DNA of 64,000 nt from Chloroflexota bacterium (GCA_016213135.1 JACRBQ010000036.1:25010-89009); one strand, 5' to 3'; shown: positions 1 to 21,656, counted from the stretch's first letter. Notes: generated from the letters alone by a model not told the origin. Program-made: numbers and translations.

Positions 1-2110
1 GCCTCCCTCACCCCTTTCTAGTCTCCAATCCGACTTCGTCGCCTTCGCCGCTACTCACCCCGGCATATTCCAGACACGCTACATTGACGCGACCGGCATG
101 GAGGTCGTACGCGTGGACTCTGCCTCGGGCAATATCGAAATCGTCCCGGCCCACCGTTTGCAAAACAAAGCTGACCGCTATTACTTCTCGGTCACCCTGT
201 CATTGGCAGCGGGCGAGGTGTACATCTCACCGGTAGATTTGAACCGCGAGTTCGGCCTTATCCCAACCCCGCACGTCCCCACCATCCGCTATGCCACGCC
301 CGTGTTTCATCCTAATGGCTCACAGGCAGGCATCGTTGTCCTCAATTTGTATGCCGGGCCTTTTCTGCGCTTCGCCCGCGCCGACGGCGATTCGGATGCG
401 TTGCTCGCACTGGTAGATGAATCCGGCTACTATCTTGCTCATCCCGATCCGGCGCGGTTGTGGGGCGGTCTGAGTGATTTGAACACCGGACTCGGCGCAT
501 CCGCCGATTACCCACAGGGCTGGCCGGAAATTGTGCGCCAACCCTCCGGCGTCTTTTCACCCCCGGCGGAGAACTGGCTGATGGCAATCTTCGATGAAGT
601 CCTGCCCGTCGGGCTGTTCGCCGGAGAGAGTCAACAGGCGCGCCGGGTGCTGGTGCATGAAACCGTACAGCCTGACGGCGAGAGCGGCCCGCGCTGGATC
701 CTCCTGCACGACGAGCCGCGTGTGAACCTGCTGGCCTCCGTCTGGGCGTTTCGTCTCACCGCCATCACCATCCTCACTGCCGCCGCCCTCGCCGCCCTGG
801 TGATGGCCGTGGGTCTCGCGCGCAGCCTCACCGCGCCCATCCTCGCCCTCACCGACGATGTGCGCCGCTTCGGACAGGACAGACTGGCCCGACGTCCGTC
901 ACAGAACGCGCCAGCCAAGGCGCGGGACGAAATCGGCGAATTGACGGCGGCCTTCACCGAAATGTCGGCGGCGCTGAATCAACACCTCGAACAACTCTCC
1001 CTGCTCAACCGCGCCGGGCATCACATCACCGCCCGCCTCGAGCGCCCCGCCGTGCTGGAGGCCGCCGGCCGCGCCGCGACGACGCTCCTGCCGGCGGAGC
1101 ATTGCGCCATTCAATTCGAGTCCGAGGGCGGCGCAATGATGAACCATGCCGCCGGCGACGCGCGCTGGGCCGCTCACCGCTCCGACCCGGCGCTGACGGC
1201 TCTCTTGAACGCGGCGCTTGCCGACGGCGAGTGGCGCACGGCGGCCTTGCCCGGCGGCGCGCTTATCCCCTCCGGCTACTTGTGCGCCGCGCCGCTGTGC
1301 GTGAGCGGGCGGCCCGGCCTCATTGAACTCTACGGGCCTGACCCGGCGCTGGCCGACTCAACCAGCGGCAACCTGCTGGCGGCTCTTAGCGTGCAAATCT
1401 CCATCGCCCTCGAAAACGCCGAACTCTACGAGCAGTTGGCCGAGCGCCGCGCCGAACTACAAACGCTTGTCGAACAACTCATCAACGCGCAAGAAGAGGA
1501 GCGCCGCCTCGTTGCTTACGACATTCACGACGGGCTGATTCAAATGCTCGTCGGCGCGCGTCTGCAACTCAACAATGCCATTGCCGACCACGAACGGGAA
1601 CGCGGGCGAGCGGAGACGGCCCTGAGAAAAGGGTTCGACGAACTGGCCGCCGCCATCGCCGAGGCCCGCCGCGTCATCGAGGGCTTGCGCCCGGCCGCCC
1701 TCGACGACCTCGGCCTGGTGACTACCCTCCGCCAGTTCGCCGAAGACAATCAGGCCGACTGCGATTGCGAACTTGATTTCACGGCCAGCCCGCCCGACTT
1801 GCGCCTGCCGCCGCCGGTAGAAACCACCGCCTTCCGCATCGCGCAAGAAGCGATTACCAACGCCCGCAAGTACGCGGAAACCAGACGCCTGCAGGTGGCC
1901 CTCACCCTTGACGACGGCGCGCTCAAGATTGAAGTGCGCGACTGGGGGCGCGGCTTCGATTTTTCTGCCATTTCCGAAGGCCGGGGCGTGGGTCTGATTG
2001 GGATGCGCGAGCGCGCGCGTTTGCTCGGCGGCGAATGCCTCATCGAAAGCATACCCGGCGCGGGCACGACCGTGCGGGCCACGCTGCCGCTACCAACCAC
2101 TGACCACTGA
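1..2110 (+). CDS. Sensor histidine kinase, NarL-partner type (sensor region, TM, HAMP, GAF-like, HisKA_3, HATPase_c); 5' end runs off the window
   Basis: Frame stays open to base 2 (SDFVAFAATHPGIFQTRYIDATG precedes the first Met at 98). TM stretch ITILTAAALAALVMAVGL. H-box YDIHDGLIQ. C-terminal ATPase blocks (RDWGRGF, GVGLIGMRER). Confidence 0.85.
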   Translation, partial: PPSPLSSLQSDFVAFAATHPGIFQTRYIDATGMEVVRVDSASGNIEIVPAHRLQNKADRYYFSVTLSLAAGEVYISPVDLNREFGLIPTPHVPTIRYATPVFHPNGSQAGIVVLNLYAGPFLRFARADGDSDALLALVDESGYYLAHPDPARLWGGLSDLNTGLGASADYPQGWPEIVRQPSGVFSPPAENWLMAIFDEVLPVGLFAGESQQARRVLVHETVQPDGESGPRWILLHDEPRVNLLASVWAFRLTAITILTAAALAALVMAVGLARSLTAPILALTDDVRRFGQDRLARRPSQNAPAKARDEIGELTAAFTEMSAALNQHLEQLSLLNRAGHHITARLERPAVLEAAGRAATTLLPAEHCAIQFESEGGAMMNHAAGDARWAAHRSDPALTALLNAALADGEWRTAALPGGALIPSGYLCAAPLCVSGRPGLIELYGPDPALADSTSGNLLAALSVQISIALENAELYEQLAERRAELQTLVEQLINAQEEERRLVAYDIHDGLIQMLVGARLQLNNAIADHERERGRAETALRKGFDELAAAIAEARRVIEGLRPAALDDLGLVTTLRQFAEDNQADCDCELDFTASPPDLRLPPPVETTAFRIAQEAITNARKYAETRRLQVALTLDDGALKIEVRDWGRGFDFSAISEGRGVGLIGMRERARLLGGECLIESIPGAGTTVRATLPLPTTDH

Positions 2111-2146: not shown

Positions 2147-2803
2147 ATGACCGACTCCATCACCGTCCTCATCGCCGACGATCACGGCGTGGTGCGCGAG
2201 GGCTTGCGCGCCATGCTGGAGCGCGAGGGCCTGCGCGTGGTGGGCGAAGCGCGCACCGGGCGCGAAGCCATCGCGCTGGCCGAATCGCTCTCACCCAAAG
2301 TTGTGCTGCTCGATATCCGCATGCCCGATCTCGACGGCCTGCAAGCTCTGGCCGCCATCAAAGCCGCGCGCCCGGAGACGAGCGTCATCATGCTCACCTC
2401 GCACGCCAATCCGGGTTACCTCGCCCGCGCCGTGGCGCACGGGGCCGCCGGCTTCCTCTCCAAAGAAGTTGACCCGGAACGAATCCCCGCCGCCGTGCGC
2501 GCCGCCGCCGCCGGCGACCACCTCCTCGACGCGGCGCTCCTGCGCGCTGCCCTCGCCTCCGCCGCCACTGAAACTCCCCTCACGCCCGAACCGGAGACGC
2601 TGGCCACTGACCGCCTCACCGGATCCGAAACGCGCGTCCTGCGCCTGCTGGCCGAAGGGCTGGACAACGAAATGATCGCCAGCGCCCTCAACCTGAGCGT
2701 CAACACCGTCAAGACCCACATCCGCCACATCTTCGAGAAGCTCAACGTCTCCGACCGGACGCAGGCCGCCTTGTGGGCGGTGAGGCACGGAGTAAATCGC
2801 TGA
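2147..2803 (+). CDS. Response regulator, NarL/LuxR family (REC + LuxR HTH)
   Basis: REC motifs (LIADDH, LLDIRMPDLDG, MLTSH) plus LuxR-type HTH (LTGSETRVLRLLAEGLDNEMIA, VKTHIRHIFEKL). Lies 36 nt after the kinase. Confidence 0.9.
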   Translation: MTDSITVLIADDHGVVREGLRAMLEREGLRVVGEARTGREAIALAESLSPKVVLLDIRMPDLDGLQALAAIKAARPETSVIMLTSHANPGYLARAVAHGAAGFLSKEVDPERIPAAVRAAAAGDHLLDAALLRAALASAATETPLTPEPETLATDRLTGSETRVLRLLAEGLDNEMIASALNLSVNTVKTHIRHIFEKLNVSDRTQAALWAVRHGVNR

Positions 2804-2965: not shown

Positions 2966-4471
2966 ATGCGTCTCACATTCAATTGGACATTGCCTGCCCT
3001 GGCATTGGCCTTGCTCTTTCTTGGCCTGACGCTCGGTGGGCAAACCCCCGCCGCCCGCGGCGCGCCCCCACTGCAAGCCACGCCCGACCCGGCCACGACC
3101 GCCGCTTTCGCCAAAGCCGGCTGCGCCGGATGCCATACCCTCCCCGGCGTCCCCAACGCTGTCGGCCTCGTCGGCCCCAACCTCGCCAAGATTGGCGCGG
3201 AGGCCGCCGGCCGCAAAGCGGGGATGGGCGCGGAAGATTACGTCCGCGAATCGATTCTCGACCCGGCGGCCTTTCTCGCGCCGCAATGCCCCAACGGCCC
3301 CTGCCCGGCGGGCGTGATGCCGCCCAACTTCGGCGAGCGATTGAGCGAAGGCGATATTGACCTGATTGTGGCTTACTTGCTCACCCTCACCGGCGAGGCC
3401 GAAGTCCTCCCTGTTCCCACCTACGTCCTCACCCCCGTCGCCATCATCCGCCCGCCCGAAACGGCTGGCACGCCCTTCGCTGAACCGCCCAAGAAGTTCG
3501 ACAACGACGCCGAAGTGTTGCTTGGCAAATATCTCTTCTTCGATGCACGCCTCTCGGCGGATGCTTCGCTCAGTTGCGCCTCGTGCCATCAGCCCGACAG
3601 GGCGTGGACGGACGGCAAAACATTGAGTGACGGCTACCCCGGCACGCTCTACTTCCGCAATACGCCCACGCTCTACAACATGGTCTACGCCCCCTATGCC
3701 TATTGGGACGGGCGGTTGGAGGGCGTGAACGACATGGGCACGGTCGTTCGCGACCACATCACCGAAGCGCACTTCTATCAGGCCGACGGGCGGCTCCTCG
3801 TCGAGCGGCTCAAGCAAGTGCCGGAATACGCGCAACTGTTCAACGACGCTTACGAGAAAGGACCAAGCTTCGGTCGGATGCTGAACGCGGTTTCGGCTTA
3901 CGTGCTCTCGCTTAACTCCGGCGCGAGCGCGTATGACCGGTATCTGGCTGGAGACACCACGGCGCTGTCAGCGGACGCGCAGGCGGGCCTCGTCCTCTTC
4001 GAGGGCAAGGCCGGTTGCGCCGCCTGCCACTCCGGCCCGGCATTCTCCGACTACAACTTCTACGCCCTCGGCGCGCCGGAGAACCCGGACATCTTCAGCG
4101 ACCCACTGCGGCACATCACCTTCCGCCGCTTCTTCCGCACCCTCGGCCTGCCCAACTATCGCAATACCTTTAAAGATGTGGGCCTGATGGCCCTCACCGA
4201 AGACGAGGCCGACCGGGGCGCGTTCCGCACCGCGCCCCTGCGCGAAGCGGCCTTCACCGCGCCCTACATGCACAACGGCATGTTCGCCACGCTCGAAAAT
4301 GTGGTGCGCTTCTACAACACCGGCACGGCGGCCACACCGCCGCTCGACCTGAGCGACGCCGAAATCGCGCAGCTTGTCGCTTTCCTCGAAAGCCTGAGCA
4401 GTGAACAGCCACAAGTCGAAGCGCCGACTCTACCGGGCTACCAAATTCGTACGCTGGGAGAGAACCAATGA
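2966..4471 (+). CDS. Cytochrome c peroxidase/MauG-family protein with an extra N-terminal mono-haem cytochrome c domain (tri-haem; IdrP-like candidate)
   Basis: Signal peptide (LPALALALLFLGLTLG). Three CxxCH motifs (CAGCH, CASCH, CAACH). CCP-family blocks (LGKYLFFDARLS, FRTAPLREAAFTAPYMHNG). Stop overlaps the next start (ATGA at 4468-4471). Confidence 0.85.
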   Translation: MRLTFNWTLPALALALLFLGLTLGGQTPAARGAPPLQATPDPATTAAFAKAGCAGCHTLPGVPNAVGLVGPNLAKIGAEAAGRKAGMGAEDYVRESILDPAAFLAPQCPNGPCPAGVMPPNFGERLSEGDIDLIVAYLLTLTGEAEVLPVPTYVLTPVAIIRPPETAGTPFAEPPKKFDNDAEVLLGKYLFFDARLSADASLSCASCHQPDRAWTDGKTLSDGYPGTLYFRNTPTLYNMVYAPYAYWDGRLEGVNDMGTVVRDHITEAHFYQADGRLLVERLKQVPEYAQLFNDAYEKGPSFGRMLNAVSAYVLSLNSGASAYDRYLAGDTTALSADAQAGLVLFEGKAGCAACHSGPAFSDYNFYALGAPENPDIFSDPLRHITFRRFFRTLGLPNYRNTFKDVGLMALTEDEADRGAFRTAPLREAAFTAPYMHNGMFATLENVVRFYNTGTAATPPLDLSDAEIAQLVAFLESLSSEQPQVEAPTLPGYQIRTLGENQ

Positions 4472-5733
4472 CCACCTCACCAACCCCTCCCAAGACCCCG
4501 TGGGATCAACAGCCGATTACAAACCGTGACATCGCCTTCATGTTCGGCGGCGCGGTGGTGTTCGTCCTCATTATCTCCATCGGGATTTTGCTGTTCGCGC
4601 GCAACACAGCCAATCCGGCTCCCACAACCGTAGCCTTTGCCACGCCAGCGAGCACACCCGCGCCAGCCGCACCGAGCTATCCACCGCTGGCCGCGCTCCC
4701 ACCCGCGCCCTTTCCGCTCGACAATCCGTATTCGGACGCGAAGGCAGAACTGGGCAAACTCCTGTACTTCGACCCGCGCATGTCGGGCGACGGCAGCACC
4801 TCGTGCAACAGTTGCCATCCGGCCAACGACGGCAGTTGGGCCATCGCCAGTCCCATCTCCTTTGGCTACCCCGGCACGACGCACTGGCGCAACTCGCAGA
4901 CCATCATCAACGCCGCGTATTACACTAAACTGAACTGGGACGGCTCGGCCACCAGCATCGAGAAGCAGAACAACGGCGCGTGGACGGGCACGGTGGCCGG
5001 CAACCTCGACACGACAATGGCCGAAGAGCGGCTGGCCCAAATCCCCGAATACGCGCGGCTGTTCAAAGAAGTGTTCGGCACAGACTACCCGCTTTACGGC
5101 GACGCCCTCAAAGCGGTTGCCACCTTCCAGCGCACCATCGTCTCGCAGAATGTCCCGTTCGACGCCTACCTCAACGGCGATGCCAGCGCCATTACGGATG
5201 AAGCCAAACAGGGCTATGACCTGTTCACCGGCAAGGCCAACTGCATCGCCTGCCACAACGGGCCGCTGACGAGCGACAACTCATTCCACAACACCGGCGT
5301 GCCAACCGCCCCCGACTTCCAGACCAACCCCCTGCGGCAAATCACCGCTCGCTGGCAATACTGGAATCGCGGCGTGCCTGAAGATGAATACGCCACCATG
5401 AACGCCGACCTCGGCCTGTATTACATCACCTATCTGGAAAGCGACAAAGGCAAGTTCCGCACGCCCTCTCTGCGCGACACGTGCTATACCGCGCCCTACA
5501 TGCACACCGGCGCATTTGCGACCCTGGAGGAGGTGGTGGCCTTCTACAACGCCGGCGGCGGCGACGACCCCAACAAAGACTCCTTGCTCCAGCCGCTCAA
5601 CCTCACCGAACAAGAACAAGCCAATCTCGCGGCGTTCATGCAGAGCCTGTGCGGCGACAAGATTATTGTGGAAGCGCCGGAACTACCCGCCTACGAAGTC
5701 TGGCCCAGCGTGACATTTGGAGGTTCCCGATGA
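4468..5733 (+). CDS. Di-haem cytochrome c peroxidase/MauG-family protein with N-terminal membrane anchor (IdrP-like candidate)
   Basis: TM helix FMFGGAVVFVLIISIGILLF. CNSCH and CIACH motifs. FRTPSLRDTCYTAPYMHTG block. 4-nt overlaps with both neighbours. Confidence 0.85.
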   Translation: MTTSPTPPKTPWDQQPITNRDIAFMFGGAVVFVLIISIGILLFARNTANPAPTTVAFATPASTPAPAAPSYPPLAALPPAPFPLDNPYSDAKAELGKLLYFDPRMSGDGSTSCNSCHPANDGSWAIASPISFGYPGTTHWRNSQTIINAAYYTKLNWDGSATSIEKQNNGAWTGTVAGNLDTTMAEERLAQIPEYARLFKEVFGTDYPLYGDALKAVATFQRTIVSQNVPFDAYLNGDASAITDEAKQGYDLFTGKANCIACHNGPLTSDNSFHNTGVPTAPDFQTNPLRQITARWQYWNRGVPEDEYATMNADLGLYYITYLESDKGKFRTPSLRDTCYTAPYMHTGAFATLEEVVAFYNAGGGDDPNKDSLLQPLNLTEQEQANLAAFMQSLCGDKIIVEAPELPAYEVWPSVTFGGSR

Positions 5734-6284
5734 CGACCAACGCTTGCGACCCTAAAGCGACCCTCACCCGCCGCCAGTTTCTCTTCCTCAGCGGCGCGGC
5801 GCTCGTCACTCTCGCCACGCCCAAATTCCTGCAAGGTGTGCCCGGCGCAGAAGCCTTGAGCCTGCAACAAGCCGGTTACCCACGCACAAAGGTCGGGCAA
5901 CTCAGCGCCCTGAAAGCCGGCCAGCCTGTTGCGTTCCAATATCCCTTTGACCATCCCAACTGCGCGAACTTCATTTACAAGCTGGGCGTCCCGGCGGCGG
6001 GCGGCATCGGCCCGGCGCAGGATGTGGTGGCATTCAACAGCCTGTGCCCGCACCAGGGCGGCCCCTTGAGCGGACGGCTCAACACCGAGCATCAAGTCCT
6101 CGGCCCGTGCCCGTTACACCTCAGCACCTTCGACCTCACCCGGCACGGCATGGTCATCAGCGGCCACGCCACCGAGGGCCTGCCCCAAATCGTCCTCGAA
6201 CTGAGCGGCGACGACATCTATGCGACCGGCGTGATGGGGCTGGTGTACGGCTTCCACAACAATCTGGCAGAGCCAAATGGCTAA
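5730..6284 (+). CDS. Tat-exported Rieske [2Fe-2S] small subunit of the AioB/IdrB type
   Basis: Twin-arginine signal TLTRRQFLFLSGAAL. Rieske ligands CPHQGGPL and CPLHLSTF. ATG 5730 overlaps the upstream TGA (5731-5733). The track ORF 5481-6284 carries a spurious N-terminal extension. Confidence 0.85.
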   Translation: MTTNACDPKATLTRRQFLFLSGAALVTLATPKFLQGVPGAEALSLQQAGYPRTKVGQLSALKAGQPVAFQYPFDHPNCANFIYKLGVPAAGGIGPAQDVVAFNSLCPHQGGPLSGRLNTEHQVLGPCPLHLSTFDLTRHGMVISGHATEGLPQIVLELSGDDIYATGVMGLVYGFHNNLAEPNG

Positions 6285-6372
6285 TCGCGTATCGCGTATT
6301 GCCTATCGCGTGTTGCCTTACGGCCATTTGCGATAAGCCATCAGCGATAAGCGAGATGCTGGAGAAACAACC

Positions 6373-9015
6373 ATGACTCAATACACTCCTCAAGACAAAG
6401 TTCCCCTGCCCCCGGCAGATGCGAAGGTGTTCACCACCGCCTGCGATTACTGCATCGTGGCCTGCGGCTACAAAGCCTATGTGTGGCCCGAAGGCACAGA
6501 AGGCGGGCCGAAGGCAAATGAAAACGCGCTCGGCCTCAACTTCCCCACCGGCGTCCTCGGCGGCTGGGTCAGCCCCAACCAGCACAATATCGTCAGCGTG
6601 GACGGGCGACCGCATCACGCCGTCGTCGTTCCCGACTTTCAATCCACCGTCGTCAACAAAGGCGGCAACCACTCCATTCGCGGCGGCACGCTGGCCCTCA
6701 AGTGCTACAACGCCAACGGGCCGACGAAAGACCGATTGCAATATCCGCAGATTCGAGTCAACGGCAAGCTGACGCCCGTGGACTGGGACACCGCCCTCGA
6801 AGTGATGGCCGCCGTGAGCAAGCATGTGCTGGAGAAGTATGGCGAGTCGGCCTGGGCGATGAAGACGTACTCCTACGAATTTTGGGAGAACACCTACGCC
6901 ATCACCAAGCTTGCCTTCGGCGCGATTGGCACGCCCGCATTCTCAGTGCACGACAAGCCCAGCATGGGCAGTGACACGGGCGGCGTGGACGACGCCGGCA
7001 TCATCACCTTCAGCGCCTCGTATCAGGACTGGGCCGAGGCCGATGTGCTCTTCATCTCCGGCACCGACCCGTTCGAGACCAAGACCATCGTCTTCACGTC
7101 GTGGATCATGGGCGGGCCGAAACTGATTTACGCCCTGCCGCGCCGCACGGCGGGCGTGGCCTACGCCGAGGCCAACGGCGGCCTGTTCCTGCAAGTCACC
7201 CCCGGCACCGACACCCTCCTGCACCTCGCCATCAATCGCATTATTCTGGAGAACGGCTGGGAGGACAAAGAGTTCGTCGAAAAGTGGATCGCCAGTTCGT
7301 GGGACGTGGACGCAGGAATGGGGCGCGGCCCGCGCAACACGCCCTGGCAGTGGCGCACTACCTGGGGCCAGTTCAGCGCCGACTATGAAAGTTACAAGAA
7401 GTGGCTGTTGGAATACGAACCGGCCCAACTGGAGAACGCCGCCAAAGTCACCGGCGTGCCTACCGAAAAGATTCGCCAGGCCGCCGAGATGCTCACCGGC
7501 GCAGGTAGCTCACGTCCCAAAGCCTCCTTCGCCTTCGAGAAGGGCAACTACTGGAGCAACAACTACCTCAACACTGCCTCGTTTGCGGCGATGGGTTTGC
7601 TGTGCGGCGCGGGCAACCGCCCCGGCCAGGTCATCAGCCGCATGGGCGGCCACCAGCGCGGCTGGATGGGTGGGCCCGGCTACCCGATGGATAAGTCGCC
7701 GGAGAAATTGCCGGGCCGCCGCAAAATCCAACTCGACCTCGACCGCTGGACGGCGGCGGGCAACGTCCGCTTCGTGTGGGTCGTCGGCACCACCTGGACG
7801 GCGGCCATGGCCGCGAGTCAGGAACTCGCCAACTCGTTCCGCAAACTCACCGTCGAGAATCCGAATCAAATCAAGTCCACGAACAAGCAGGACATCATCA
7901 ACGCCCTCATCGCCCGTGTGGACAGCGGCGGCATGGTGGTGGTGGACTCCGACATTTACCCGGTGGAGCCGATCAACACCGAATTCGCCGACATCGTTCT
8001 GCCCGCCGCCGCGTGGGGCGAGCACGACGCGACCCGCGCCAACGGCGAGCGCCGCCTGCGGCTCTACAGCAAATTCTACGACCCGCCCGGCGAAGCCAAG
8101 CCCGACTGGTGGGCCATTGCCAAGTTTGCGAAGAAGATGGGCTTTAGCGGCTGGGACTGGGAAAACGACAACGACGTGTTCGAGGAAGCCGCGCGCTTCA
8201 GCCGGGGCGGCGTGCTGGATTACTACGCGCTGGTGTGGTATGCGCGCAACAACGGCCTCAGAGGCCACGAAGTTCTGCGCGAACTTGGCACGCAGGGCAT
8301 CCAGACTCCTATCCGCTGGGTGAACGGCAAGATGGAAGGCACCGCGCGCCTGCACGACTCGACTCTGCAACTCGACTCACCTCAAGGCCCCACCGTCCAC
8401 GCCAAATGGCTGACGCACTTCGACTCGCATTCCGGCAAAGCGTTACTGCTGAAAAGCCCGTGGGAATTGTGGAGTGACTTTTACGAGCGCGTCACGCCCG
8501 ACCCGGCCAAAGGCGAATTCTGGCTGAGCACCGGGCGCATCAACGAAATCTGGCAGTCGGCGTTTGACGACGTGCGCAAGCCGTACATCAAACAACGTTG
8601 GCCGGATACGTGGGTGGAGATTCACCCCGACGACGCGGCGCAGTACGGCATCGAGTCCGGCGATGTGGTGCGGATGTTCAGCGACGACATTCAGGTACAG
8701 ACCGGCGGCTGGGTGCGGGTGAAAGGCTACAAGTTCACCGATTTGGTCAAAGCCGGACACATCCAGTCGGGCAAGGGCGAAGCTATTGCCGTCGCCATCG
8801 TCTCCGAGGACGTGCGGCCCGGGGCGCTGTTCACCAACTTTCTGCACCCGGCCAGCCCGGCCAACTCGCTCGTCCACCGCGTGCCCGATCCGTTCGCCAA
8901 CGTCCACCGCTTCAAGCTGGGCAAGGCGCAGATCGAGAAGATCGGCGAGTCGCCGTACAAGAAATCGTTGGATGAAATGACGTTCAAGCCGCGCACCGTC
9001 ACATTTACCGGATAA
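6373..9015 (+). CDS. Molybdopterin (bis-MGD) oxidoreductase large subunit of the arsenite-oxidase/iodate-reductase (AioA/IdrA) family
   Basis: N-terminus VPLPPADAK...CDYCIVACGY (Cx2Cx3C, the 3Fe-4S motif of AioA-type subunits). RMGGHQRGW block. 880 aa. Follows the Rieske gene as in aioBA. Confidence 0.8.
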   Translation: MTQYTPQDKVPLPPADAKVFTTACDYCIVACGYKAYVWPEGTEGGPKANENALGLNFPTGVLGGWVSPNQHNIVSVDGRPHHAVVVPDFQSTVVNKGGNHSIRGGTLALKCYNANGPTKDRLQYPQIRVNGKLTPVDWDTALEVMAAVSKHVLEKYGESAWAMKTYSYEFWENTYAITKLAFGAIGTPAFSVHDKPSMGSDTGGVDDAGIITFSASYQDWAEADVLFISGTDPFETKTIVFTSWIMGGPKLIYALPRRTAGVAYAEANGGLFLQVTPGTDTLLHLAINRIILENGWEDKEFVEKWIASSWDVDAGMGRGPRNTPWQWRTTWGQFSADYESYKKWLLEYEPAQLENAAKVTGVPTEKIRQAAEMLTGAGSSRPKASFAFEKGNYWSNNYLNTASFAAMGLLCGAGNRPGQVISRMGGHQRGWMGGPGYPMDKSPEKLPGRRKIQLDLDRWTAAGNVRFVWVVGTTWTAAMAASQELANSFRKLTVENPNQIKSTNKQDIINALIARVDSGGMVVVDSDIYPVEPINTEFADIVLPAAAWGEHDATRANGERRLRLYSKFYDPPGEAKPDWWAIAKFAKKMGFSGWDWENDNDVFEEAARFSRGGVLDYYALVWYARNNGLRGHEVLRELGTQGIQTPIRWVNGKMEGTARLHDSTLQLDSPQGPTVHAKWLTHFDSHSGKALLLKSPWELWSDFYERVTPDPAKGEFWLSTGRINEIWQSAFDDVRKPYIKQRWPDTWVEIHPDDAAQYGIESGDVVRMFSDDIQVQTGGWVRVKGYKFTDLVKAGHIQSGKGEAIAVAIVSEDVRPGALFTNFLHPASPANSLVHRVPDPFANVHRFKLGKAQIEKIGESPYKKSLDEMTFKPRTVTFTG

Positions 9016-9066
9016 CAGGCGGCAAAGATTGTCGCTTAAACCCGAAGGGTCTTGCTGGCACAAACC

Positions 9067-9741
9067 ATGAAACCGCTCGCAGAACTGCTCGAAGCGTCCG
9101 CCGCCCTGCACCGCCATCTCTGCCCGCGCCAGGTGTTGGGGGCGCGGATGGGGATGCTGGCGGGTGAACTGCTCGGCCTCGACCTGCCGCAAACCGACAC
9201 CCGGACCTTTGGCCCGAGTGCAGGTAAACGACTGTATGCCATTGTCGAAACCGACGGCTGTTTCACCGATGGCGTCTCGGCGGCGACCAACTGCTGGGTG
9301 GGACGGCGGACTATGCGCGTGGAAGACTACGGCAAAGTGGCGACGACGTTTGTGGACACGCAGACCGGACAAGCCATCCGCATCGTTCCCCAATCCGATG
9401 TACGCCTGCGCGCCCGCGATTACGCGCCGGAGGCGCGCAACAAATGGGAAACGATGTTGCTGGGCTATCAGCGGATACCCGCTGGCGAGTTGCTGTCGGC
9501 GTTGCCGGTGCAACTGAAAACGCCGATGGAGAAGATTGCCAGCCGGGCGGGAGTCAAGGCACTGTGCGAGATATGCGGCGAGGAAATTATGAACGAGCGC
9601 GAGGTTATTCGCGATGGGGCGATCCTGTGCCGGGCATGCGCCGGACATGCCTACTATGTCCTCATGGCGGAGGGTACGCTTCCGAATTCTGATTTATTGC
9701 AAGCCAACCAGGATATGATGGCGCTTCTGGTCGCCGCGTAG
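9067..9741 (+). CDS. FmdE-family protein with C-terminal Cys4 zinc-ribbon
   Basis: FmdE-like core (HRHLCPRQVLGARMG, ETDGCFTDGV) and CEICGEE...LCRACAG. ATG 9067 is preferred over the track's TTG at 9052. Confidence 0.65.
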   Translation: MKPLAELLEASAALHRHLCPRQVLGARMGMLAGELLGLDLPQTDTRTFGPSAGKRLYAIVETDGCFTDGVSAATNCWVGRRTMRVEDYGKVATTFVDTQTGQAIRIVPQSDVRLRARDYAPEARNKWETMLLGYQRIPAGELLSALPVQLKTPMEKIASRAGVKALCEICGEEIMNEREVIRDGAILCRACAGHAYYVLMAEGTLPNSDLLQANQDMMALLVAA

Positions 9742-10486: not shown

Positions 10487-11500
10487 TCAAGGGGCATAGA
10501 ACTCTGAGTCGGGATAGAAATCCTTCCAAGCCCCATCGTAGGAACTCAAACTAGGGACGGGTTGCAGGGACTCGCCTTTGAGCGGCCCGGCGGTTGCCAA
10601 TCCGCGCACCGGGTTCCATGTTGAACCCGTCTCTTCGTCAACCAACACATCTCCATCAGCGCGAAAAGAAAGCGTACGCCCGGCGGCCTGCCTCACGTAG
10701 GCATGGAACGACTCGCCTGAGACCCACAGGACGACAGGCGCATCGCCAAGCGCGTCATTGATTACCCCTGCCGTTTCGGCGCCCGTATAGTAATACGCTT
10801 TGGCCTGCCCGGCCAGCACCAGGCCAACAACGAAATCCCGGCTGAACTCCTGCCGTCTGCTTCCCAACCGGTCCACATCGTTGACCATTACCAGCGTGTC
10901 GGGATACTCTGCCTTCCAATTGGCCCAAGTCGTCAACTGCGAGGGGAGTAAATTGAGTTGCACCCCTTTGAGCGGCCCGATGATGGCCCGGCCCCAGGGC
11001 TGTGACCAGATCGAGCGCGTCTCATGGTCATACCAGGTCATGGCGTTCATAAACAGCGCCCCCCCATTCCCAAACGTGTTGGGCACGCCATCAATGCGCC
11101 GGTCGTGCACGAGACCGGTGTAGCAAATCGGTCACCAGGTGACGAGGATGGGAATGCCCGCCAGTTCGTCGTCCACCATTTCACGGAAGCGCAAGACGGT
11201 GACCGGATAGGCTTTGGCCTCGCCGTCGAGGGCGATGCCCATCACCAGCTCGTCGTCGAGCAGGGGTGCATCGGCTGCGCTGGCAAACTGCGGGTCGTAG
11301 ACCGGCGGAATGCCGTCGAAGGGGATCAATTGTGGAAATGCGTATTCGTTCGTGTCGGTCACGCGAACATTTGTGGCGACGGGCGAGGCCGGTAATGGGG
11401 TCCCAACCGACACGGGGAACTCAGGCGTGGCCGCAGGAGTCGGCGCGGCGCAAGCCGAGAGCAGAATAACGAACACCAGAAGGAATTTTCGCTTCACCAT
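10487..11500 (-). CDS. DUF3179-family lipoprotein, selenocysteine-containing; in-frame UGA at 11132-11134
   Basis: Track ORFs 11132-11500 and 10487-11110 share a frame. Read-through gives IPILVTW-U-PICYTGLVHDRRIDG...HETRSIWSQ, where Cys homologues carry VT(Y/F)CPLC. Lipobox LLSAC at the N-terminus. Confidence 0.75.
11099..11118 (-). promoter_or_regulatory. Candidate bacterial SECIS stem-loop
   Basis: CCGGUC-UCGUGCAC-GACCGG (6 bp, 8-nt loop containing GU) starting 16 nt after the U of UGA. Confidence 0.45.
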
Positions 11501-13677: not shown

Positions 13678-15390
13678 ATGAACAATCCCAAGAAGCATGA
13701 CGTTGCCATCATCGGCTCCGGCATGGGCGGCTCCACGCTGGCCGCGGTGCTGGCCCGGCACGGGCTGTCGGTGATTGTGTTCGAAGGCGGTACCCACCCG
13801 CGCTTCACCATCGGCGAGTCGATGATTCTCGAAACCTCGGAAGCGATGCGGGCGCTGGCCGAGTTCTACGATGTGCCGGAACTGGCCTACTACAGTTCGG
13901 AAAACTTCTACCCTTATATTGGCACCTCGCACGGCGTGAAGCGCCACTTTAGTTTTGTCCATCATACGGCTGGGCAAAAGGTGGCCGTGAACAAAAGCCT
14001 GCAAGCCGTCATCCCCAAACTACCGTACGGGCATGAGATTCACATTCAACGGCAGGATTCCGATTACTTCCTCACTTCCGTCGCCATCTCGTACGGCGCG
14101 ACGGTATTGCAAAACACGCTCATTCAAGACATCAACGTTCATCCTGACGGCGTAGACGTGATCACCCACAAGGGCCAGACGCACCACGCCTCATACATCG
14201 TTGACGCGGGCGGGATGAAATCTTTGCTCGCCAACAAGTTCAACTGGCGGCATCGCGATTGCCTCTCGCACTCGCGCACCCTCTTCACCCACATGGTGGA
14301 CGTGCCCTGTTTCAACAACGTTGGCCCGGCGCGGCAGGCATTCGGCCATCCCTACCCGCTCTCCGAGGGCACCCTGCACCATATCTTCAAGGGCGGCTGG
14401 CTGTGGATAATTCCGTTCAACAACCATCCCGGCGCCACCAACCCGCTGTGCAGTGTGGGCCTGCAACTCGACCCGCGCCTTTACCCGCAGCGCAACGACC
14501 TGACGCCCGAAGAGGAGTTCTACAACTTCATCCGGCAGTTCCCGGATATGGCGGCTCACCTGAAAGATGCGCGCCCGGTGCGTGACTGGATGAGGATTGA
14601 CCGCCTGCAATACTCGGCCACGCACATCGTGGGCGACCGTTTTGCCCTGCTGGCCCATGCCGCCGGTTTCATTGACCCGCTATATTCGAAGGGTCTGTAT
14701 GTCACTCATATCAGCATTTTCTTGATGGCCGACCTGTTGCTCAAAGCCAAACAGACCGGCGACTACTCGGCGCAAGCCTTTGCCCCGCTGGAGACGATGA
14801 CGCTCAACTACATCAAAATGCACGACCGGCTGGTGGCGAGTTCCTTCAAAACCTGGAGCCACTACAAACTCTGGCAGGTCTATTCGGTGCTGTGGCTGTT
14901 GGGGGCGTATCTGGAGTATCTGCGCCTGATCACCAATCGCTACCGCTCTAAAACTCGCGCCGAGTACCTCGCCTTCCTGCGACCGCACCAATTGGTGGGG
15001 GGCGGCTTCGACCGTTTCTTTGAAATTCAAGAGAAGATTGATGCGCTCATGGACCGGGTCAACCCGGACGACGAAGCCGACGTGGATCGCACGGTGGCCG
15101 AGATTCGCGCTTGCTTTGACTCGTTCCCGTGGCTCCCCATCGTCTTCCGCGAACTCTTGCAAGGCAAGAACCATTTGCCCGACAACAAACTGCGCCTGAG
15201 CCTGCTCAAACCGGGTAATGGTTTCCTCGGTAATGGCGTTTATTACCAGCATTTCTTTGGTGGCGTGCCGCTGTTGGAATTAGGGCGGCGGGCGTTGGCC
15301 GACCAACTGCGCTACTCCCGACCGGCCATTGAGTGGCAACGGCGCACCCGCGCCCGCCTGGCGCAACAAACCCAAGTGACTCATGTTTGA
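13678..15390 (+). CDS. FAD-dependent oxidoreductase of the flavin-dependent halogenase family
   Basis: GxGxxG ([11 protein letters not shown]), PRFTIGES, and the WxWxIP signature (GGWLWIIPF). Confidence 0.6.
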
Positions 15391-16003
15391 CGACCCACTG
15401 CGCCGGGCCAAAGACCGCTGGGGGGAACCCCTGGCCGTGCGGTTGGGACGTATTCCGCCCAACGCCGCCACTCTGACCGCTTTCGGGCTAGGGGTCATTG
15501 CTGTGACGCTCGCTGCCCAGGGCGCTTATCTCTGGGCGCTGGGCTTCTGGTCACTCAATCGCCTGATTGATGCTTTCGACGGCCTGCTGGCGCGGATGCA
15601 GAATCAACAAAGCGACTTCGGCGGCTACCTCGATATTTTGCTGGACTTTGCGATCTATGCGGCTCTGCCGATTGGACTGGTAGTGAGCGCTCCCTCAGAA
15701 ACGCGATACTTCGCACTGGCATTCTTGTTGGGGGCCTTCTACGTCAACGGCGCGTCGTGGATGTATCTGGCCGCGATTTTTGAGAAGCGCAGCTCCCGGA
15801 CAGCGCACTCCGCCACCGCGCCCCGGAACATGACTACCGTTATCATGCCGTCGGGCCTGGTTGGCGCAGTAGAAACGTTTATTGCTTATTGTGCATTCTT
15901 GTTGTGGCCGGAAGCGCTGGAATGGCTATATCTTGGCTTTGGGGCGATGGTGTTGTTGACAACTAGCCAGCGACTTGTCTGGGCTTGGCGCGCTTTACGT
16001 TAA
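15383..16003 (+). CDS. CDP-alcohol phosphatidyltransferase family membrane protein
   Basis: [23 protein letters not shown] fits DGx2ARx8Gx3Dx3D. Multi-TM. Overlaps the previous gene by 8 nt. Confidence 0.8.
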
Positions 16004-17538: not shown

Positions 17539-19044
17539 TTATCGTTGCCATTCCAGCAACTTGATGAACAACTGCTTGACCGTCGGCGTAAGGCGGGTAC
17601 GGTTGTAGGCATCGGCGATTTTCTTGAATCCTTCGGACTGCGTGGGGTACGGGTGAATCACTGTCGCCAGTTTCGCCAAACCGATATTGCCCGCCATCGC
17701 TACCGAGGCTTCGCTAATCATGTCTCCGGCGCGGCGGGCCACAATGGTCGCCCCCACGATCTTGTCGCTCCCTTTCTTGACCAGGACTTTGACAAAACCT
17801 TCGGTCTCGCTATCCGCGACCGCGCGGTCCAAATCCTTGAGATAGTGAACAAAGGGGGTGACGGCAATACCCTGTTGCCTGGCTTCGGCCTCGGTTAGCC
17901 CAACGTGCGCGAGTTCGGGGTCGGTATAGGTGCACCACGGCACGTTGAGGGCGCTGGCCCGGCGGCGGCCAAAGAAAAGGGCGTTTTGCACGGCGATACG
18001 AGCGGTGGCGTCGGCAGTGTGAGTGAACTGATATTTGTAGCCGACGTCGCCTGCCGCATAAATGCGCGGGTTGGTCGTCTGCAGGTGGTCGTCCACCGTT
18101 ACGCCTTTTTTTGTATACGCGACACCCGCCTTTTCCAAATCCATCCCTTCCACATTCGGGGCGCGCCCGGCGGCAACGAGCACCGCATCGGTGGTGAGGG
18201 TGCGCCGCTGGCCGTTATCATCCAGGTGAATCACCACCTCGCCGTTCAACCGCTCAACCTGTGTCGGCTTCACGCCCAGTTCAAACTGCACGCCCTCGCT
18301 TTCCAACGCGCGCCGGATGACACTGGCCGCGTCGGCATCATCCCGAATGAGAATGCCTGGCGCGAGGTCCACCACCGTCACTCGACTGCCAAAGCTCTGA
18401 AAGGCTTGCGCCATCTCGCACCCAATCGGCCCGCCGCCGATGACTACCAACCGGCGCGGCAGTTCGGTGAGATTGAAGACGTTCTCGTTAGTGAGGAAGT
18501 CAAGCTCCGATAAGCCCGGGATGGGTGGCACAGCGGCCCGGGAACCGGTGGCGATAACGGCTTTGCTAAAGCGCAGGGTCTGTCCACCGACGGCCAGGGT
18601 GTCCGGGCCGGTGAAGCGCGCCTCCCCAAAAAACACGTCAGCGCCTAGCGAACGAAAGCGTTCCGCCGAGTCGGCCCGGCTCAGGTCGGCGCGCACCCGG
18701 CGCACGCGCTCCATCACTACGGCGAAGTCCACCTGCACGTCCGGCAGATGCACACCCATCTCGGCAAGGCGGCGAACCTCGCCCAGGAGATGCGCCGGGC
18801 GCAGTAATGTCTTTGAAGGCATACAGCCGGTGTTCAGGCAGTCGCCGCCCATGAAATGTTTTTCGATAACGGCGACCTTGCCGCCCAGTCCGGCGACACC
18901 CGCCGCACACACCAATCCCGCCGACCCCGCGCCAATGACAACCATGTTGTAGCGCCCGCCCGGTGCGGGGTTGCGCCAGCCGGGCGGTTGCGCGTTGGCT
19001 TTCCAGCGGGTGTTATGCGAGTCATTCGGCGGTTGAAGATTCAT
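17539..19044 (-). CDS. Pyridine nucleotide-disulfide oxidoreductase (dihydrolipoamide dehydrogenase/mercuric-reductase-like flavoprotein)
   Basis: VVIGAGSAGLV, redox-active GGDCLNTGCMPSK, C-terminal dimerisation domain. Start taken at MNLQPPN (19044), overlapping the upstream gene's end. Confidence 0.85.
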   Translation of the reverse strand: MNLQPPNDSHNTRWKANAQPPGWRNPAPGGRYNMVVIGAGSAGLVCAAGVAGLGGKVAVIEKHFMGGDCLNTGCMPSKTLLRPAHLLGEVRRLAEMGVHLPDVQVDFAVVMERVRRVRADLSRADSAERFRSLGADVFFGEARFTGPDTLAVGGQTLRFSKAVIATGSRAAVPPIPGLSELDFLTNENVFNLTELPRRLVVIGGGPIGCEMAQAFQSFGSRVTVVDLAPGILIRDDADAASVIRRALESEGVQFELGVKPTQVERLNGEVVIHLDDNGQRRTLTTDAVLVAAGRAPNVEGMDLEKAGVAYTKKGVTVDDHLQTTNPRIYAAGDVGYKYQFTHTADATARIAVQNALFFGRRRASALNVPWCTYTDPELAHVGLTEAEARQQGIAVTPFVHYLKDLDRAVADSETEGFVKVLVKKGSDKIVGATIVARRAGDMISEASVAMAGNIGLAKLATVIHPYPTQSEGFKKIADAYNRTRLTPTVKQLFIKLLEWQR

Positions 19045-19801
19045 TGATAATAGTCTCCGAAATTGGTTTGGCTTCGCGGCGGCGGAAATAGCGCGAGAGC
19101 ACGAGGCTGAGGACAAACATGAGCACGCCAACCCCGAGAGTTAGCGGATCAAGTTGCGGCGTGAAATCGGTAAGTTTGCCAGTGATGGAGGCCCCGAGCG
19201 CCACAAACGAGATCGTGCCGGGGATCGTGCCCAGTGCAGAGGCAAGCAAGAATGCCCGCCAGTCAATCTTTAGAAATCCACATAGATAACTAACAAGGTC
19301 GTAGGGCAGAAAGATAAACCGCATAGTCAACACAGTCTCGAAACTGCTTTGCCGCAGCCTCTCGGTGAAGCGATGAATCACCCCGGTGGAAGTCTCACTG
19401 CTGAAGACCCCCTGCCCAAAGTACCGCCCGACGACATACGACAGCATCGCCGAGTTGTTGCTGCCGATGACCGTATAAATGACGCCGAAAATCGGCCCGA
19501 AGAGGAACCCGCCAGCGACGGTCAGTGGAGTGCCGGGGAAAAACAGCAGTGGGCGGAGCGCGTAGACGACGATATATATGAGCGGGCCATAGGCGGTGCC
19601 CCGGATGGTATCGGCCAGCGTTTGCGCTGCGGCCAGCGGCGTCAGCGCATGGGCGCGCGCGTATAGCGTGTAACTGACGATGATCGCTAACCAAACGCCT
19701 GCGCTAACTATTTTTTGCCAGTGTTGACTGAACAAGGTGGTAAGAGCAAATTTTGGACGAGGGGTATCAGGTGTAGTCATAGCATCTTTTGTATGCGCCA
19801 T
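19022..19801 (-). CDS. TVP38/TMEM64 (DedA-related) family membrane protein
   Basis: Multi-TM with the LRPLLFFPGTPLTVAGGFLFG motif. Overlaps the downstream flavoprotein gene. Confidence 0.75.
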   Translation of the reverse strand: MAHTKDAMTTPDTPRPKFALTTLFSQHWQKIVSAGVWLAIIVSYTLYARAHALTPLAAAQTLADTIRGTAYGPLIYIVVYALRPLLFFPGTPLTVAGGFLFGPIFGVIYTVIGSNNSAMLSYVVGRYFGQGVFSSETSTGVIHRFTERLRQSSFETVLTMRFIFLPYDLVSYLCGFLKIDWRAFLLASALGTIPGTISFVALGASITGKLTDFTPQLDPLTLGVGVLMFVLSLVLSRYFRRREAKPISETIINESSTAE

Positions 19802-19971
19802 AAAGTCACCGGAATGACTGGCAACATGCTATAGACGCTAGTTACCATGGAAATCTTACGGCAGGGGTTTAATATTCAATCTCTACTTTGGTAAGAAAGT
19901 TCGGTCTCGTGCCGTCTAAGTGAATAAGCCTCTATAGAACCAATGGTGCTGGTTTTAGCGAAAACAGGCTC

Positions 19972-20019
19972 GTAGCGTAGTCCCTTGTGCGCGCTCAACG
20001 CACACAAGGACTTAAGCGT
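19972..20019. repeat. REP-like imperfect palindromic element (family copy 1)
   Basis: CGTAGCGTAGTCCCTTGTGCGCG-CTCAA-CGCACACAAGGACTTAAGCG. The arms match the elements at 21256-21302 and 45410-45458. Confidence 0.5.
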
Positions 20020-20103
20020 GGTCGCCATCTGGCCGCAGGGCGCCGCCCAAAATTCCGGCGCAAATAGCACGGTTGATGGCGTCTTCGGGATTTTTTTGCG
20101 GTC

Positions 20104-20134
20104 TTGACCTTCCAGCGACTGGAAGGTGTAAAGT
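20104..20134 (+). promoter_or_regulatory. MerR-type promoter/operator: -35 TTGACC, 19-bp spacer containing a perfect dyad, -10 TAAAGT
   Basis: TTGACC (20104-20109), spacer ttCCAGCGACTGGaaggtg with dyad CCTTCCAG/CTGGAAGG, TAAAGT (20129-20134). Lies 14 nt upstream of the merR ATG. Confidence 0.7.
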
Positions 20135-20147
20135 AAAGCCGGGAGCG

Positions 20148-20603
20148 ATGAAGATGTTGATTCACGATTTGGCGAAGCAAACCGGTGTTCCGGCTAAAAC
20201 CATCCGGTATTACGAGTCCATCAAGTTGTTGCCGCGCCCGGAACGGGCGGCGAACAATTACCGCCAATACGCGCCGGCCGAGGCCGAACGCTTGCGCTTC
20301 ATCGCCAGCGCGCGCAGCTTGGGCTTCTCGCTCGATGACGTGGCCGAAATCCTCGCCGCGCGTGATAAGGGACTGGCCCCCTGCCAGCGCGTGCTCGATG
20401 CCGTTGATCGGCGACTGACGGACGTTGACCGGCGCATTGCCGATTTGCTGACTCTGCGCGACTCTCTCCGGCAACTGCGGAGCGAGGGGGCCATTCTCCC
20501 CCGCGATGACGTGCAGGGGGAGCATTGCGTGTGTTACTTGCTCAAAGCGTATCGCGATAGCGGGCACGTCGCTATTCAGAGAGGAGAGTTATTCGATGAC
20601 TGA
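20148..20603 (+). CDS. merR: MerR-family metal-responsive transcriptional regulator
   Basis: HTH (IHDLAKQTGVPAKTIRYYESIKLLP), coiled-coil, and Cys residues (LAPCQ, HCVCY) in metal-binding positions. Confidence 0.8.
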   Translation: MKMLIHDLAKQTGVPAKTIRYYESIKLLPRPERAANNYRQYAPAEAERLRFIASARSLGFSLDDVAEILAARDKGLAPCQRVLDAVDRRLTDVDRRIADLLTLRDSLRQLRSEGAILPRDDVQGEHCVCYLLKAYRDSGHVAIQRGELFDD

Positions 20604-21123
20604 TACTTGCGGTTGCCCGCCCGAAGCCGGAAGCGCGGTTTGCGAACTGCCGGCTCAGGGATTTCAGCGCGCGGCCCGCGCCGCCAATGCCTGCCCCGAG
20701 TGCGGCAAGACTGGCAAGCCCGTGCAAGGGCAAACCGTCAAAGCCCTTCTGTCTGTGAGCCTGCGCGAAATGCGCGACGCGGACTATTTGTTTTGCCGGA
20801 CCCGGACTTGCCCCATCGTTTACTTTTCACCCGACGGTGAGCATACCTTCACGGTAGAACAAGTGCGAGAGCGTGTTTATCAAAAGGAGCCGGGTGCGGA
20901 AGAGGTGTTCGTCTGCTACTGCTTCCGGCATACGGTTGGCGATATTCGCGCCGCCTCGACGGAGACTCGCGCCGCAATCCTTGACGACATCAACACCGGC
21001 ATCAACGCCGGGCAGTGCGCCTGTGATCTGCGAAACCCGCAAGGCTCATGTTGCTTGGGGAATGTGCGCGGGCTGGCTGCTGCGCAACAGCTTGAGCGCT
21101 TGGCGGTGGGAGTGGCACGCTAA
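20596..21123 (+). CDS. Cys-rich metallochaperone-like protein (zinc-ribbon + BFD-like [2Fe-2S] domain, CopZ-N-terminal type)
   Basis: CPECGKTG...FCRTRTCPIVYF, then CYCF...GQCACDLRNPQGSCC. ATG overlaps the merR stop (ATGACTGA). Confidence 0.55.
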   Translation: MTDTCGCPPEAGSAVCELPAQGFQRAARAANACPECGKTGKPVQGQTVKALLSVSLREMRDADYLFCRTRTCPIVYFSPDGEHTFTVEQVRERVYQKEPGAEEVFVCYCFRHTVGDIRAASTETRAAILDDINTGINAGQCACDLRNPQGSCCLGNVRGLAAAQQLERLAVGVAR

Positions 21124-21255
21124 CGCGCGTTAGCATAAGTCCGGCGGCGCGTTTTTCCATTGTCATTGAAAGGAGGATTATTGCGCTTACAAAACATACG
21201 GTTTGGCAACTCAATGAATCACTCGTTAAGAATGTTCTAAGAATCTATCCGTAAA

Positions 21256-21302
21256 TGTAGCCTAGCCTCTTGTGGGCGGCGGGGACAAGCCCCTATGCTA
21301 CG
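21256..21302. repeat. REP-like imperfect palindromic element (family copy 2)
   Basis: TGTAGCCTAGCCTCTTGTG-GGCGGCGGGG-ACAAGCCCCTATGCTACG. Confidence 0.45.
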
Positions 21303-21322
21303 GGTTTCTAAGGAGAAGACCT

Positions 21323-21565: not shown

Positions 21566-21656
21566 CGTAGGGCTGATAGCAGATAGCTTATGGCCGATAG
21601 CTGATAGCGCGTTGCCATCTGCCACGCGAAGCGGCCATCTTCCACAGGAGATCCCC

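Follow-up and report, generated by a model that had tools for sequence, protein, structure and literature searches.

A probable dissimilatory iodate reductase cluster, idrP2-idrP1-idrB-idrA, in an uncultured Chloroflexota bacterium

Dissimilatory iodate reductase (Idr) is known from the classical idrABP1P2 clusters of Pseudomonas sp. SCT, Denitromonas iodatirespirans IR-12, Azoarcus sp. DN11, and Roseovarius azorensis. These encode a catalytic subunit (IdrA) with a [3Fe-4S] cluster and a molybdenum-bis(pyranopterin guanine dinucleotide) cofactor (Mo-bisPGD), a Rieske small subunit (IdrB), which is the only one of the two to bear a signal for twin-arginine translocation (Tat), and two di-haem proteins (IdrP1 and IdrP2). 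A deep-branching set of idr clusters, called type b below, is found in Notoacmeibacter marinus XMTR2A4, Candidatus Rokubacteria GWA2_73_35, NC10, Candidatus Methylomirabilis iodofontis, and Planctomycetaceae, including Stieleria marina K23_9. Here, we examined a 64,000-nucleotide stretch from a Chloroflexota bacterium (GCA_016213135.1, JACRBQ010000036.1:25010-89009), called the window throughout, in which a first-pass annotation had marked five co-oriented genes at positions 2966 to 9741 as an iodate-reductase-like operon. Four of these genes are probably the orthologue of the dissimilatory iodate reductase cluster, idrP2-idrP1-idrB-idrA, in an uncultured, Anaerolineae-related member of the Chloroflexota. 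The enzyme system itself is already known; what is new is the host lineage and a few minor add-ons.

Compared to the classical clusters, the window has the identical four genes in the identical order, with the same set of [3Fe-4S], Rieske, Mo-bisPGD, and two di-haem proteins, a Tat signal on the small subunit only, and the same His-Asp and GGHQR changes of the substrate pocket relative to the arsenite oxidase subunit AioA. Its catalytic subunit, however, is about 52% identical to the classical type, as represented by homologues from Vibrio, Moritella, Sedimenticola, and Rhodovibrionaceae, and it further differs in pocket residues, in an extra cytochrome c domain on IdrP2, in a membrane-anchored IdrP1, in the addition of an FmdE-like gene and a NarL-type two-component system, and in its Chloroflexota host. 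With the type b clusters it shares a sub-clade (97% bootstrap support), 57 to 67% identity, pocket motifs, and synteny. Unlike the window, most type b clusters have no additional haem domain, a fusion of IdrP2 with IdrP1 is found in several, and none beyond the close Anaerolineae relatives has an FmdE-like gene.

All five open reading frames (ORFs) were recovered where the first-pass annotation had placed them, including the 4-nucleotide ATGA overlaps that join the first gene to the second (4468-4471) and the second to the third (5730-5733); idrP1 is translationally coupled on both sides through these overlaps. The fourth product has the length (880 aa) and motifs described for it: an N-terminal [3Fe-4S] motif of the Cx2Cx3C type (C24-x2-C27-x3-C31) and an RMGGHQ block at residue 423. 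It lacks a signal peptide and matches the Pfam domains Rieske_3, Molybdopterin, and Molydop_binding.

The public record names this protein "arsenate reductase (azurin) large subunit," an arsenite-oxidase (Aio) family name. Could the locus encode an arsenite oxidase, AioBA, as this GenBank label says, with unrelated peroxidase genes alongside? Both subunits pass the profile cut-offs, with 452 versus 359 bits for TIGR02693 (the NCBIfam arsenite oxidase model) and 110 versus 96 bits for TIGR02694, and the order of small before large subunit and the Rieske and [3Fe-4S] architecture are shared with AioBA (PDB 1g8k and 4aay), as are the His, Arg, and His of the arsenite site. The TIGR02693 score is, however, less than half of the 1149 bits of a genuine AioA (P0165, which scores 1288 bits to PDB 4aay), IdrA-type proteins scoring 386 bits. 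Identity to true AioA is about 30%, the best matches among solved structures are AioA chains at only about 290 bits, and the protein lies outside a 100% AioA clade. It also has Asp for Asn196, Asp for Glu203, and Arg for Glu424, the first and last of these as in IdrA. Pfam scans of 58 other window ORFs, almost all of at least 150 aa with only a few shorter ones, found no ars, aioXSR, or chlorite-dismutase-like domains; the first-pass claim that ars, aioXSR, and cld genes are absent from the window holds for these ORFs, most of those below 150 aa lying outside the scan. Moreover, the adjacent di-haem gene pair, obligatory here and no part of AioBA, is no accident of position, since at least 10 phyla conserve it, often with translational coupling or fusion. 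An arsenite oxidase is thus a very improbable identity for this locus, and the first-pass preference for an Idr-like enzyme is well supported by the trees, by the pocket motifs, and by the synteny of all four genes with recognised idr clusters.

A homologue search returned more than 120 clusters at 64 to 94% identity to the window large subunit. Those with a named source are mostly metagenome-assembled genomes (MAGs) of Chloroflexota, plus Gimesia, and most of the named ones are labelled arsenite oxidase (large subunit). Among representatives at 50% identity, the top match is a 913-aa Mariprofundaceae protein (53% identity), whose relatives come from Vibrio, Moritella, Sedimenticola, and Thiomargarita, genera in which Reyes-Umana et al. 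(2021, PMC8692401) place the iodate reduction island. The search of representatives also yielded many proteins of 1100 to 2100 aa (P0136 and P0157-P0201) whose similarity to the Mo subunit is limited to the first ~430 residues, at 35 to 40% identity.

Scanning species-representative genomes gave 564 stretches with relatives. The best 80 of the 564 form a continuum from 81% down to 56% identity over at least 10 phyla, including the Chloroflexota lineages Anaerolineales, Promineifilaceae, Caldilineaceae, and Dehalococcoidia, as well as Acidimicrobiia, many Planctomycetota (among them the cultured Stieleria marina K23_9), Methylomirabilota/Rokubacteria/NC10, Nitrospinota, and N. marinus XMTR2A4. 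The window IdrA is 63% identical to a Rokubacteria homologue, 58% to IdrA of N. marinus, and 52% to classical IdrA; the N. marinus protein is itself only 48 to 51% identical to classical IdrA. In a neighbour-joining tree of 69 sequences, the window clade (100%) is sister to the proteobacterial IdrA clade (100%), with AioA far outside. In a larger tree (89 sequences, 880 columns, 100 bootstraps), an IdrA superclade linked to cytochrome c peroxidase (CCP) genes (91%) is separate from AioA (100%) and splits into two halves: half (a) (92%) holds the classical proteobacterial IdrA, and half (b) (97%), our type b, holds N. marinus XMTR2A4, Methylomirabilota/Rokubacteria/NC10, Nitrospinota, Planctomycetes, Dehalococcoidia, and the window sub-clade. 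The first-pass annotation had left the placement of the large subunit to a phylogeny; by neighbour joining, it lies outside the AioA clade and inside the IdrA superclade.

Planctomycetaceae, Rokubacteria, and NC10 have been explicitly named as deep-branching IdrA carriers (PMC8692401), and for Ca. Methylomirabilis iodofontis the best matches of its IdrA and IdrP1 include "Planctomycetaceae" and "Chloroflexi" proteins (PMC10989891). The tree placement and these published carriers put the window enzyme inside the recognised IdrA radiation, so the third, uncharacterised clade that the first-pass annotation had offered as an alternative falls away. That the intermediate clades (P0122 and P0124-P0128) would lack CCP genes is taken from PMC8692401. 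One idr-type cluster (L034) sits on a groundwater MAG contig labelled "Methanobacteriota archaeon"; its IdrA nests among Planctomycetota/Phycisphaerae, and its presence there may be a binning artefact or a transfer.

The substrate site of AioA, which we take to be His195, Glu203, Arg419, and His423 in 1G8K numbering (Ellis et al. 2001), corresponds to His, Asp, Arg, and His in the window protein. The two pocket segments read IHNRPAYNSE and RLGGHQEGY in AioA, FHDTPSDVTST and R(F/L/M)GGHQRGG in classical IdrA, VHDKPSMGSDT and RMGGHQRGW in the window protein, and HDKPQAAEDT and RGGGHQRGW in N. marinus. By alignment, the window motifs match those of the type b sub-clade (HDKP..DT and GGHQRGW), unlike AioA. 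The changes from Asn196 to Asp and from Glu424 to Arg are common to all IdrA-type proteins, and the positive charge added by the latter would be consistent with anion binding. Where AioA and classical IdrA are cleanly told apart, at 28 alignment columns, the residue of the window protein is that of IdrA in 16, that of AioA in 4, and another in 8. The position aligned to AioA Ala199 is Ser in the window protein and, as far as the alignment goes, varies among Gly, Ala, Ser, and Gln within the clade. Ser197 was considered as a ligand of Mo and set aside as unlikely, the position being variable across the clade. As read from sequence, this variability argues against a conserved protein ligand, in which the enzyme would resemble AioBA, and fits the report that Mo has no protein ligand (PMC10100899).

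By tblastn of the window proteins against 87 related loci, 79 have CCP matches, and 66 of these 79, over at least 10 phyla, show the order A-type CCP, B-type CCP, Rieske, and Mo subunit; most exceptions are truncated contigs. The first CCP of related loci always matches the first window gene best, and the Rieske-adjacent CCP matches the second best; in N. marinus the pair at the matching positions is 51% (gene 1) and 55% (gene 2) identical to the window proteins. The two peroxidases are thus orthologous to idrP2 and idrP1 by best match and position. Their names follow from Azoarcus DN11, whose accessions run A,B,P1,P2 (PMC10149662); this puts P1 beside B and so makes gene 2 idrP1 and gene 1 idrP2. 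Called genes in Sedimenticola and in a Rhodovibrionaceae genome have the identical order, which N. marinus also shows and which is written idrP2,P1,B,A in PMC10989891. The P-P-B-A arrangement, which the first-pass annotation took for a peculiarity of this locus, is therefore the canonical idr order. In three Dehalococcoidia/Chloroflexota loci (L039, L049, and L055), an IdrP1-type gene directly adjoins the Mo gene, and tblastn found no Rieske or IdrP2-type gene nearby; these may be a reduced variant of the cluster.

What are the two "peroxidases"? Motif and Pfam searches agree with the first-pass description of both. Gene 1 encodes an N-terminal hydrophobic segment (signal or anchor), a class-I cytochrome c domain (Cytochrom_C, residues 47 to 141), and a di-haem CCP_MauG core, with CxxCH motifs at residues 53, 204, and 351. 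Gene 2 encodes a membrane-anchored di-haem CCP with a transmembrane-like segment at residues 17 to 49, CxxCH at 113 and 259, and a CCP_MauG match. The extra haem domain of IdrP2 is real but not peculiar to the window, as had been supposed: it is confined to one sub-clade of about 18 related genomes from Anaerolineae, Caldilineaceae, Acidimicrobiia, Gimesia, Gemmataceae, and Isosphaeraceae, and some Caldilineaceae have a cytochrome c domain on the second CCP, too. In 11 loci of several lineages and both tree halves (L002, L016, L019-L021, L028, L030, L036, L043, L076, and L077), IdrP2 and IdrP1 are fused into a single ORF with four or five haems, which suggests that the two proteins form a heterodimer.

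Whole-sequence scores place both CCPs nearest to bacterial di-haem peroxidases and MbnH, with MauG less near, and both fall below the NCBIfam cut-offs for MauG (187 and 221 versus 444) and MbnH (185 and 223 versus 363). They share with MauG/MbnH/BthA-type enzymes the CCP_MauG fold, two CxxCH motifs, and a conserved inter-haem Trp. Both also have a Tyr 14 positions past the His of PY(M/F)HxG, which aligns with MauG Tyr294 and the corresponding Tyr of MbnH, where canonical peroxidases have a Met axial ligand; this Tyr is present in 172 of 173 motif instances over idr loci, N. marinus and classical clusters included. The distal Gln-Pro-Glu of peroxidases and MauG is replaced by L/V-H-F in IdrP2-type and Q-A-A in IdrP1-type proteins, and the distal His is Tyr in IdrP2/IdrP1, both provisionally, from alignment to a single reference fragment. 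Judged by alignment, neither protein has the features of a canonical bacterial CCP (bCCP), namely, a His/Met electron-transfer haem and a distal Gln-Pro-Glu. The Tyr ligand position and the missing Gln-Pro-Glu would make IdrP1 and IdrP2 MauG/MbnH-like, unlike ordinary peroxidases; unlike MauG and MbnH themselves, they lack the distal Gln-Pro-Glu, and no MauG or MbnH substrate genes lie nearby. The Tyr and the distal features are family-wide, and none is specific to the window. None of the papers in the library searched names IdrP1 together with MauG.

These features bear on a second question, whether an Idr of this branch acts on iodate at all. The locus could belong to the Idr superclade while the non-proteobacterial type b enzymes have a different substrate or direction, their di-haem partners carrying out MauG-like oxidative chemistry; candidates would be oxyanions of another halogen or of a chalcogen, such as bromate, chlorate, or selenate, or a reaction that oxidises its substrate. 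The pocket of type b enzymes departs from the classical HDTPSDVTST and GGHQRGG, these enzymes are tied to iodate by phenotype-level evidence only (PMC11445184), many of their hosts are groundwater and soil lineages, where iodate is scarce, and both CCPs have the Tyr at the Tyr294 position without the bCCP/MauG distal Gln-Pro-Glu set. These last features do not separate type b, because classical idr clusters have them too. Types a and b are also one clade with an identical four-gene cassette, and the cultured type strain of N. marinus, which carries a type b cluster, does reduce iodate (2 mM; PMC11445184). An idr cluster is also present in Ca. Methylomirabilis iodofontis, which comes from an iodine-rich spring (PMC10989891); the phylum of this host falls in type b, its own IdrA lying outside the tree. 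On balance, a different substrate seems unlikely. Likewise, we doubt a broader version, by which the type b branch (Chloroflexota, Planctomycetota, Methylomirabilota, Nitrospinota, and Acidimicrobiia) is something other than a simple iodate respiratory reductase and the obligatory IdrP2-IdrP1 pair is a His/Tyr-ligated MauG-like heterodimer with oxidative or halogen-handling chemistry instead of H2O2 peroxidase activity. If this were true, the substrate or product spectrum of the system would depart from the current Idr model.

Several points weigh against assigning the locus to iodate reduction. Several pocket positions are not those of classical IdrA (K in place of T, D in place of S, and W in place of G), and three of the four arsenite-site residues of AioA are kept, the fourth being a conservative Glu-to-Asp change. 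In the 69-sequence tree, the window clade and classical IdrA meet at a node with 71% support only, and the method was neighbour joining, not maximum likelihood. The genetically validated IdrAs (Denitromonas IR-12, Pseudomonas SCT, and Azoarcus DN11) lie outside the tree sample, their clade being represented by homologues from Vibrio, Moritella, Sedimenticola, and Thiomargarita, named IdrA carriers in the literature; Roseovarius azorensis is likewise outside the best 80 of the 564 relatives, and N. marinus and the literature-named carrier genera served as anchors. Iodate reduction by the window enzyme, as by any Chloroflexota homologue, is suggested by orthology and a single phenotype anchor, the whole-cell phenotype of N. 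marinus, which could also possess a second, classical idrA. Neither a cld-like gene nor a nearby cytochrome bc complex was seen in the window. The largest doubt concerns the type b pocket, whose substrate may differ from that of classical Idr.

Assignment to the idr family still leaves the physiological role of the enzyme to be considered. A functional iodate reductase could serve as an electron sink or in detoxification under oxygen limitation and not in growth-supporting respiration. In aerobic marine idr bacteria, N. marinus included, iodate reduction is confined to static conditions, and iodate does not sustain their anaerobic growth (PMC11445184); among the window ORFs scanned, no dedicated respiratory module lies beside the operon. 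Classical idr clusters, on the other hand, support growth in Denitromonas and Pseudomonas SCT (PMC8692401), and the sequence itself does not discriminate between a sink and respiration. We regard the sink as a tentative possibility, short of an even chance.

For the idr orthologue itself, a working model can be drawn. The Tat signal of IdrB would carry IdrA, which has no signal of its own, across the membrane with its cofactor already loaded. Electrons would then pass, outside the cytoplasm, from the quinol pool and c-type cytochromes to the Rieske [2Fe-2S] cluster, on to the [3Fe-4S] cluster, and then to Mo-bisPGD, where iodate would be reduced towards HOI and iodide. IdrP2 and IdrP1, probably as a heterodimer, would handle reactive by-products (H2O2, HOI, or another oxidant), with the built-in cytochrome c domain of IdrP2 as a possible point of electron entry and IdrP1 anchored in the membrane. 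The upstream NarL-type two-component system probably governs the operon, and the FmdE-like zinc-finger protein may help maturation.

As described in the first-pass annotation, gene 3 encodes a Tat-signal Rieske protein, with a TRRQFL motif, the Rieske motif CPH...CPLH, and a TIGR02694 match; its identity to the Rieske genes in related idr loci is 39 to 62%. The gene lies directly upstream of that for the signal-less large subunit, as in Idr clusters. The spacer between idrB and idrA is unusually long (88 nucleotides [nt]), and in it (6277-6348) lie short direct repeats, with ATCGCGT and GCGATAA as units, as well as an imperfect hairpin.

The fifth product is an FmdE-family Cys4 protein, as had been proposed, with Pfam matches to FmdE (PF02663; 99.7 bits, cut-off 22.9) and to the C4 zinc finger zf-dskA_traR (39.3 bits), and is cytoplasmic. 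Its start could be TTG at 9052, the GenBank protein beginning with ATG at 9067. FmdE genes accompany formylmethanofuran dehydrogenase, another Mo/W-bisPGD enzyme, which makes a maturation role a reasonable guess and no more. The gene is present as claimed, but its link to idr is narrow: by tblastn of the 87 loci, an FmdE-like gene lies 3' of the Mo gene only in three Anaerolineae loci: L008, L087, and L001, the last of which has the Mo-subunit sequence of the window itself. Its sole relative in the PDB is 2gvi, an uncharacterised FmdE-like protein. By analogy, it may be a maturation or assembly factor with a lineage-specific link to idr.

A NarL-type two-component system lies directly upstream, where Pfam recovered both kinase and regulator as announced. 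The kinase has an extracytoplasmic PF21623/dCache-like sensor, a transmembrane-like segment at about residues 211 to 252, and HAMP, GAF, HisKA_3, and HATPase domains. In L008 (Anaerolineales), a response regulator 64% identical to that of the window lies directly upstream of the idr cluster. A jackhmmer search of all ORFs of the 87 loci found the sensor domain in only four other loci, about 5 in 60 overall, in each case with HAMP and directly upstream of the idr cluster (L043, 3340-5661; L077, 4486-6822 on the minus strand; L082, 3413-5461; and L084, 934-3297). Their hosts are Rokubacteria, Myxococcota, a deltaproteobacterium, and Calditrichaceae, and the output modules behind the sensor vary between NarL-type and NtrC/sigma-54-type. 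The sensor was considered as a conserved idr-linked feature and rejected as such, with only these four other loci having it; it is a candidate iodate sensor. The inverted repeat across the regulator stop codon (93% complementary) is likely a terminator hairpin parting the two-component genes from the idr operon, and with this position, the idr genes are probably their own transcription unit. Upstream of the operon, a 20-nt imperfect direct repeat (2855-2896; TTCACCC..., 22-nt spacing) could be a regulator binding site. An Rfam scan found no Moco riboswitch or other Rfam family in the window, and a promoter/terminator consensus scan was uninformative on this high-GC sequence.

Table 1. Features of the idr locus and of a metal-resistance-like neighbourhood in the window
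Feature	Position	Strand	Basis or remark
Sensor histidine kinase	2..2110	+	N-terminus cut by window edge; frame 2 open from window start; Pfam
NarL/LuxR-type response regulator, receiver domain + GerE HTH	2147..2803	+	Pfam
Inverted repeat, 30 nt, across regulator stop codon	2792..2859	+	Function inferred
idrP2 orthologue, tri-haem, 501 aa	2966..4471	+	ORF, Pfam, CxxCH motifs
idrP1 orthologue, membrane-anchored di-haem CCP/MauG-like, 421 aa	4468..5733	+	ORF, Pfam, CxxCH motifs
idrB orthologue, Tat-exported Rieske [2Fe-2S] small subunit, 184 aa	5730..6284	+	Pfam, TIGR02694, motifs
idrA orthologue, Mo-bisPGD catalytic subunit, 880 aa	6373..9015	+	Pfam, TIGR02693, trees, pocket motifs
FmdE-family protein with C-terminal C4 zinc finger, 224 aa	9067..9741	+	Pfam
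Second pyridine-nucleotide-disulphide oxidoreductase	17539-19131	-	
zf_CopZ protein	20506-21123		
MerA-like HMA + pyridine-nucleotide-disulphide oxidoreductase	22592-24346		

Beyond the operon, horizontal-transfer signals were considered for the window and rejected: the GC profile is flat, with no compositional break, and there are no tRNA genes. Positions 17539 to 24346 form a metal-resistance-like neighbourhood (Table 1); mer and cus genes have been reported near the Denitromonas idr island (Reyes-Umana et al., PMC8692401). On the minus strand, a DUF3179 gene (10487-11500) seems split into the adjacent ORFs 11132-11500 and 10487-11110, which could be a frameshift or a pseudogene. At 13678 to 16003, the gene of a 570-aa FAD protein, whose match to Trp_halogenase is weak (E = 1.7e-13), overlaps that of a CDP-alcohol phosphatidyltransferase; the FAD protein is more likely lipid-related than a halogenase.

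The window gene and its many close homologues (64 to 94% identical, mostly from Chloroflexota and Planctomycetota) are called arsenite oxidase in public records and by automated pipelines. Relabelling them as Idr-type alters the arsenic and iodine cycling inferred from metagenomes, notably those of groundwater and soil, which are rich in these two phyla. The spread of the best 80 of the 564 relatives over at least 10 phyla indicates that, outside the Proteobacteria, the idr cassette is far more widespread than one would gather from the five iodate-respiring isolates. Stieleria marina K23_9 and Notoacmeibacter marinus, both in culture and both with an enzyme of this type, offer experimental handles. 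The family-wide MauG-type Tyr position and the repeated fusion of IdrP2 with IdrP1 are relevant to the part that the two "peroxidases" play in iodate reduction.

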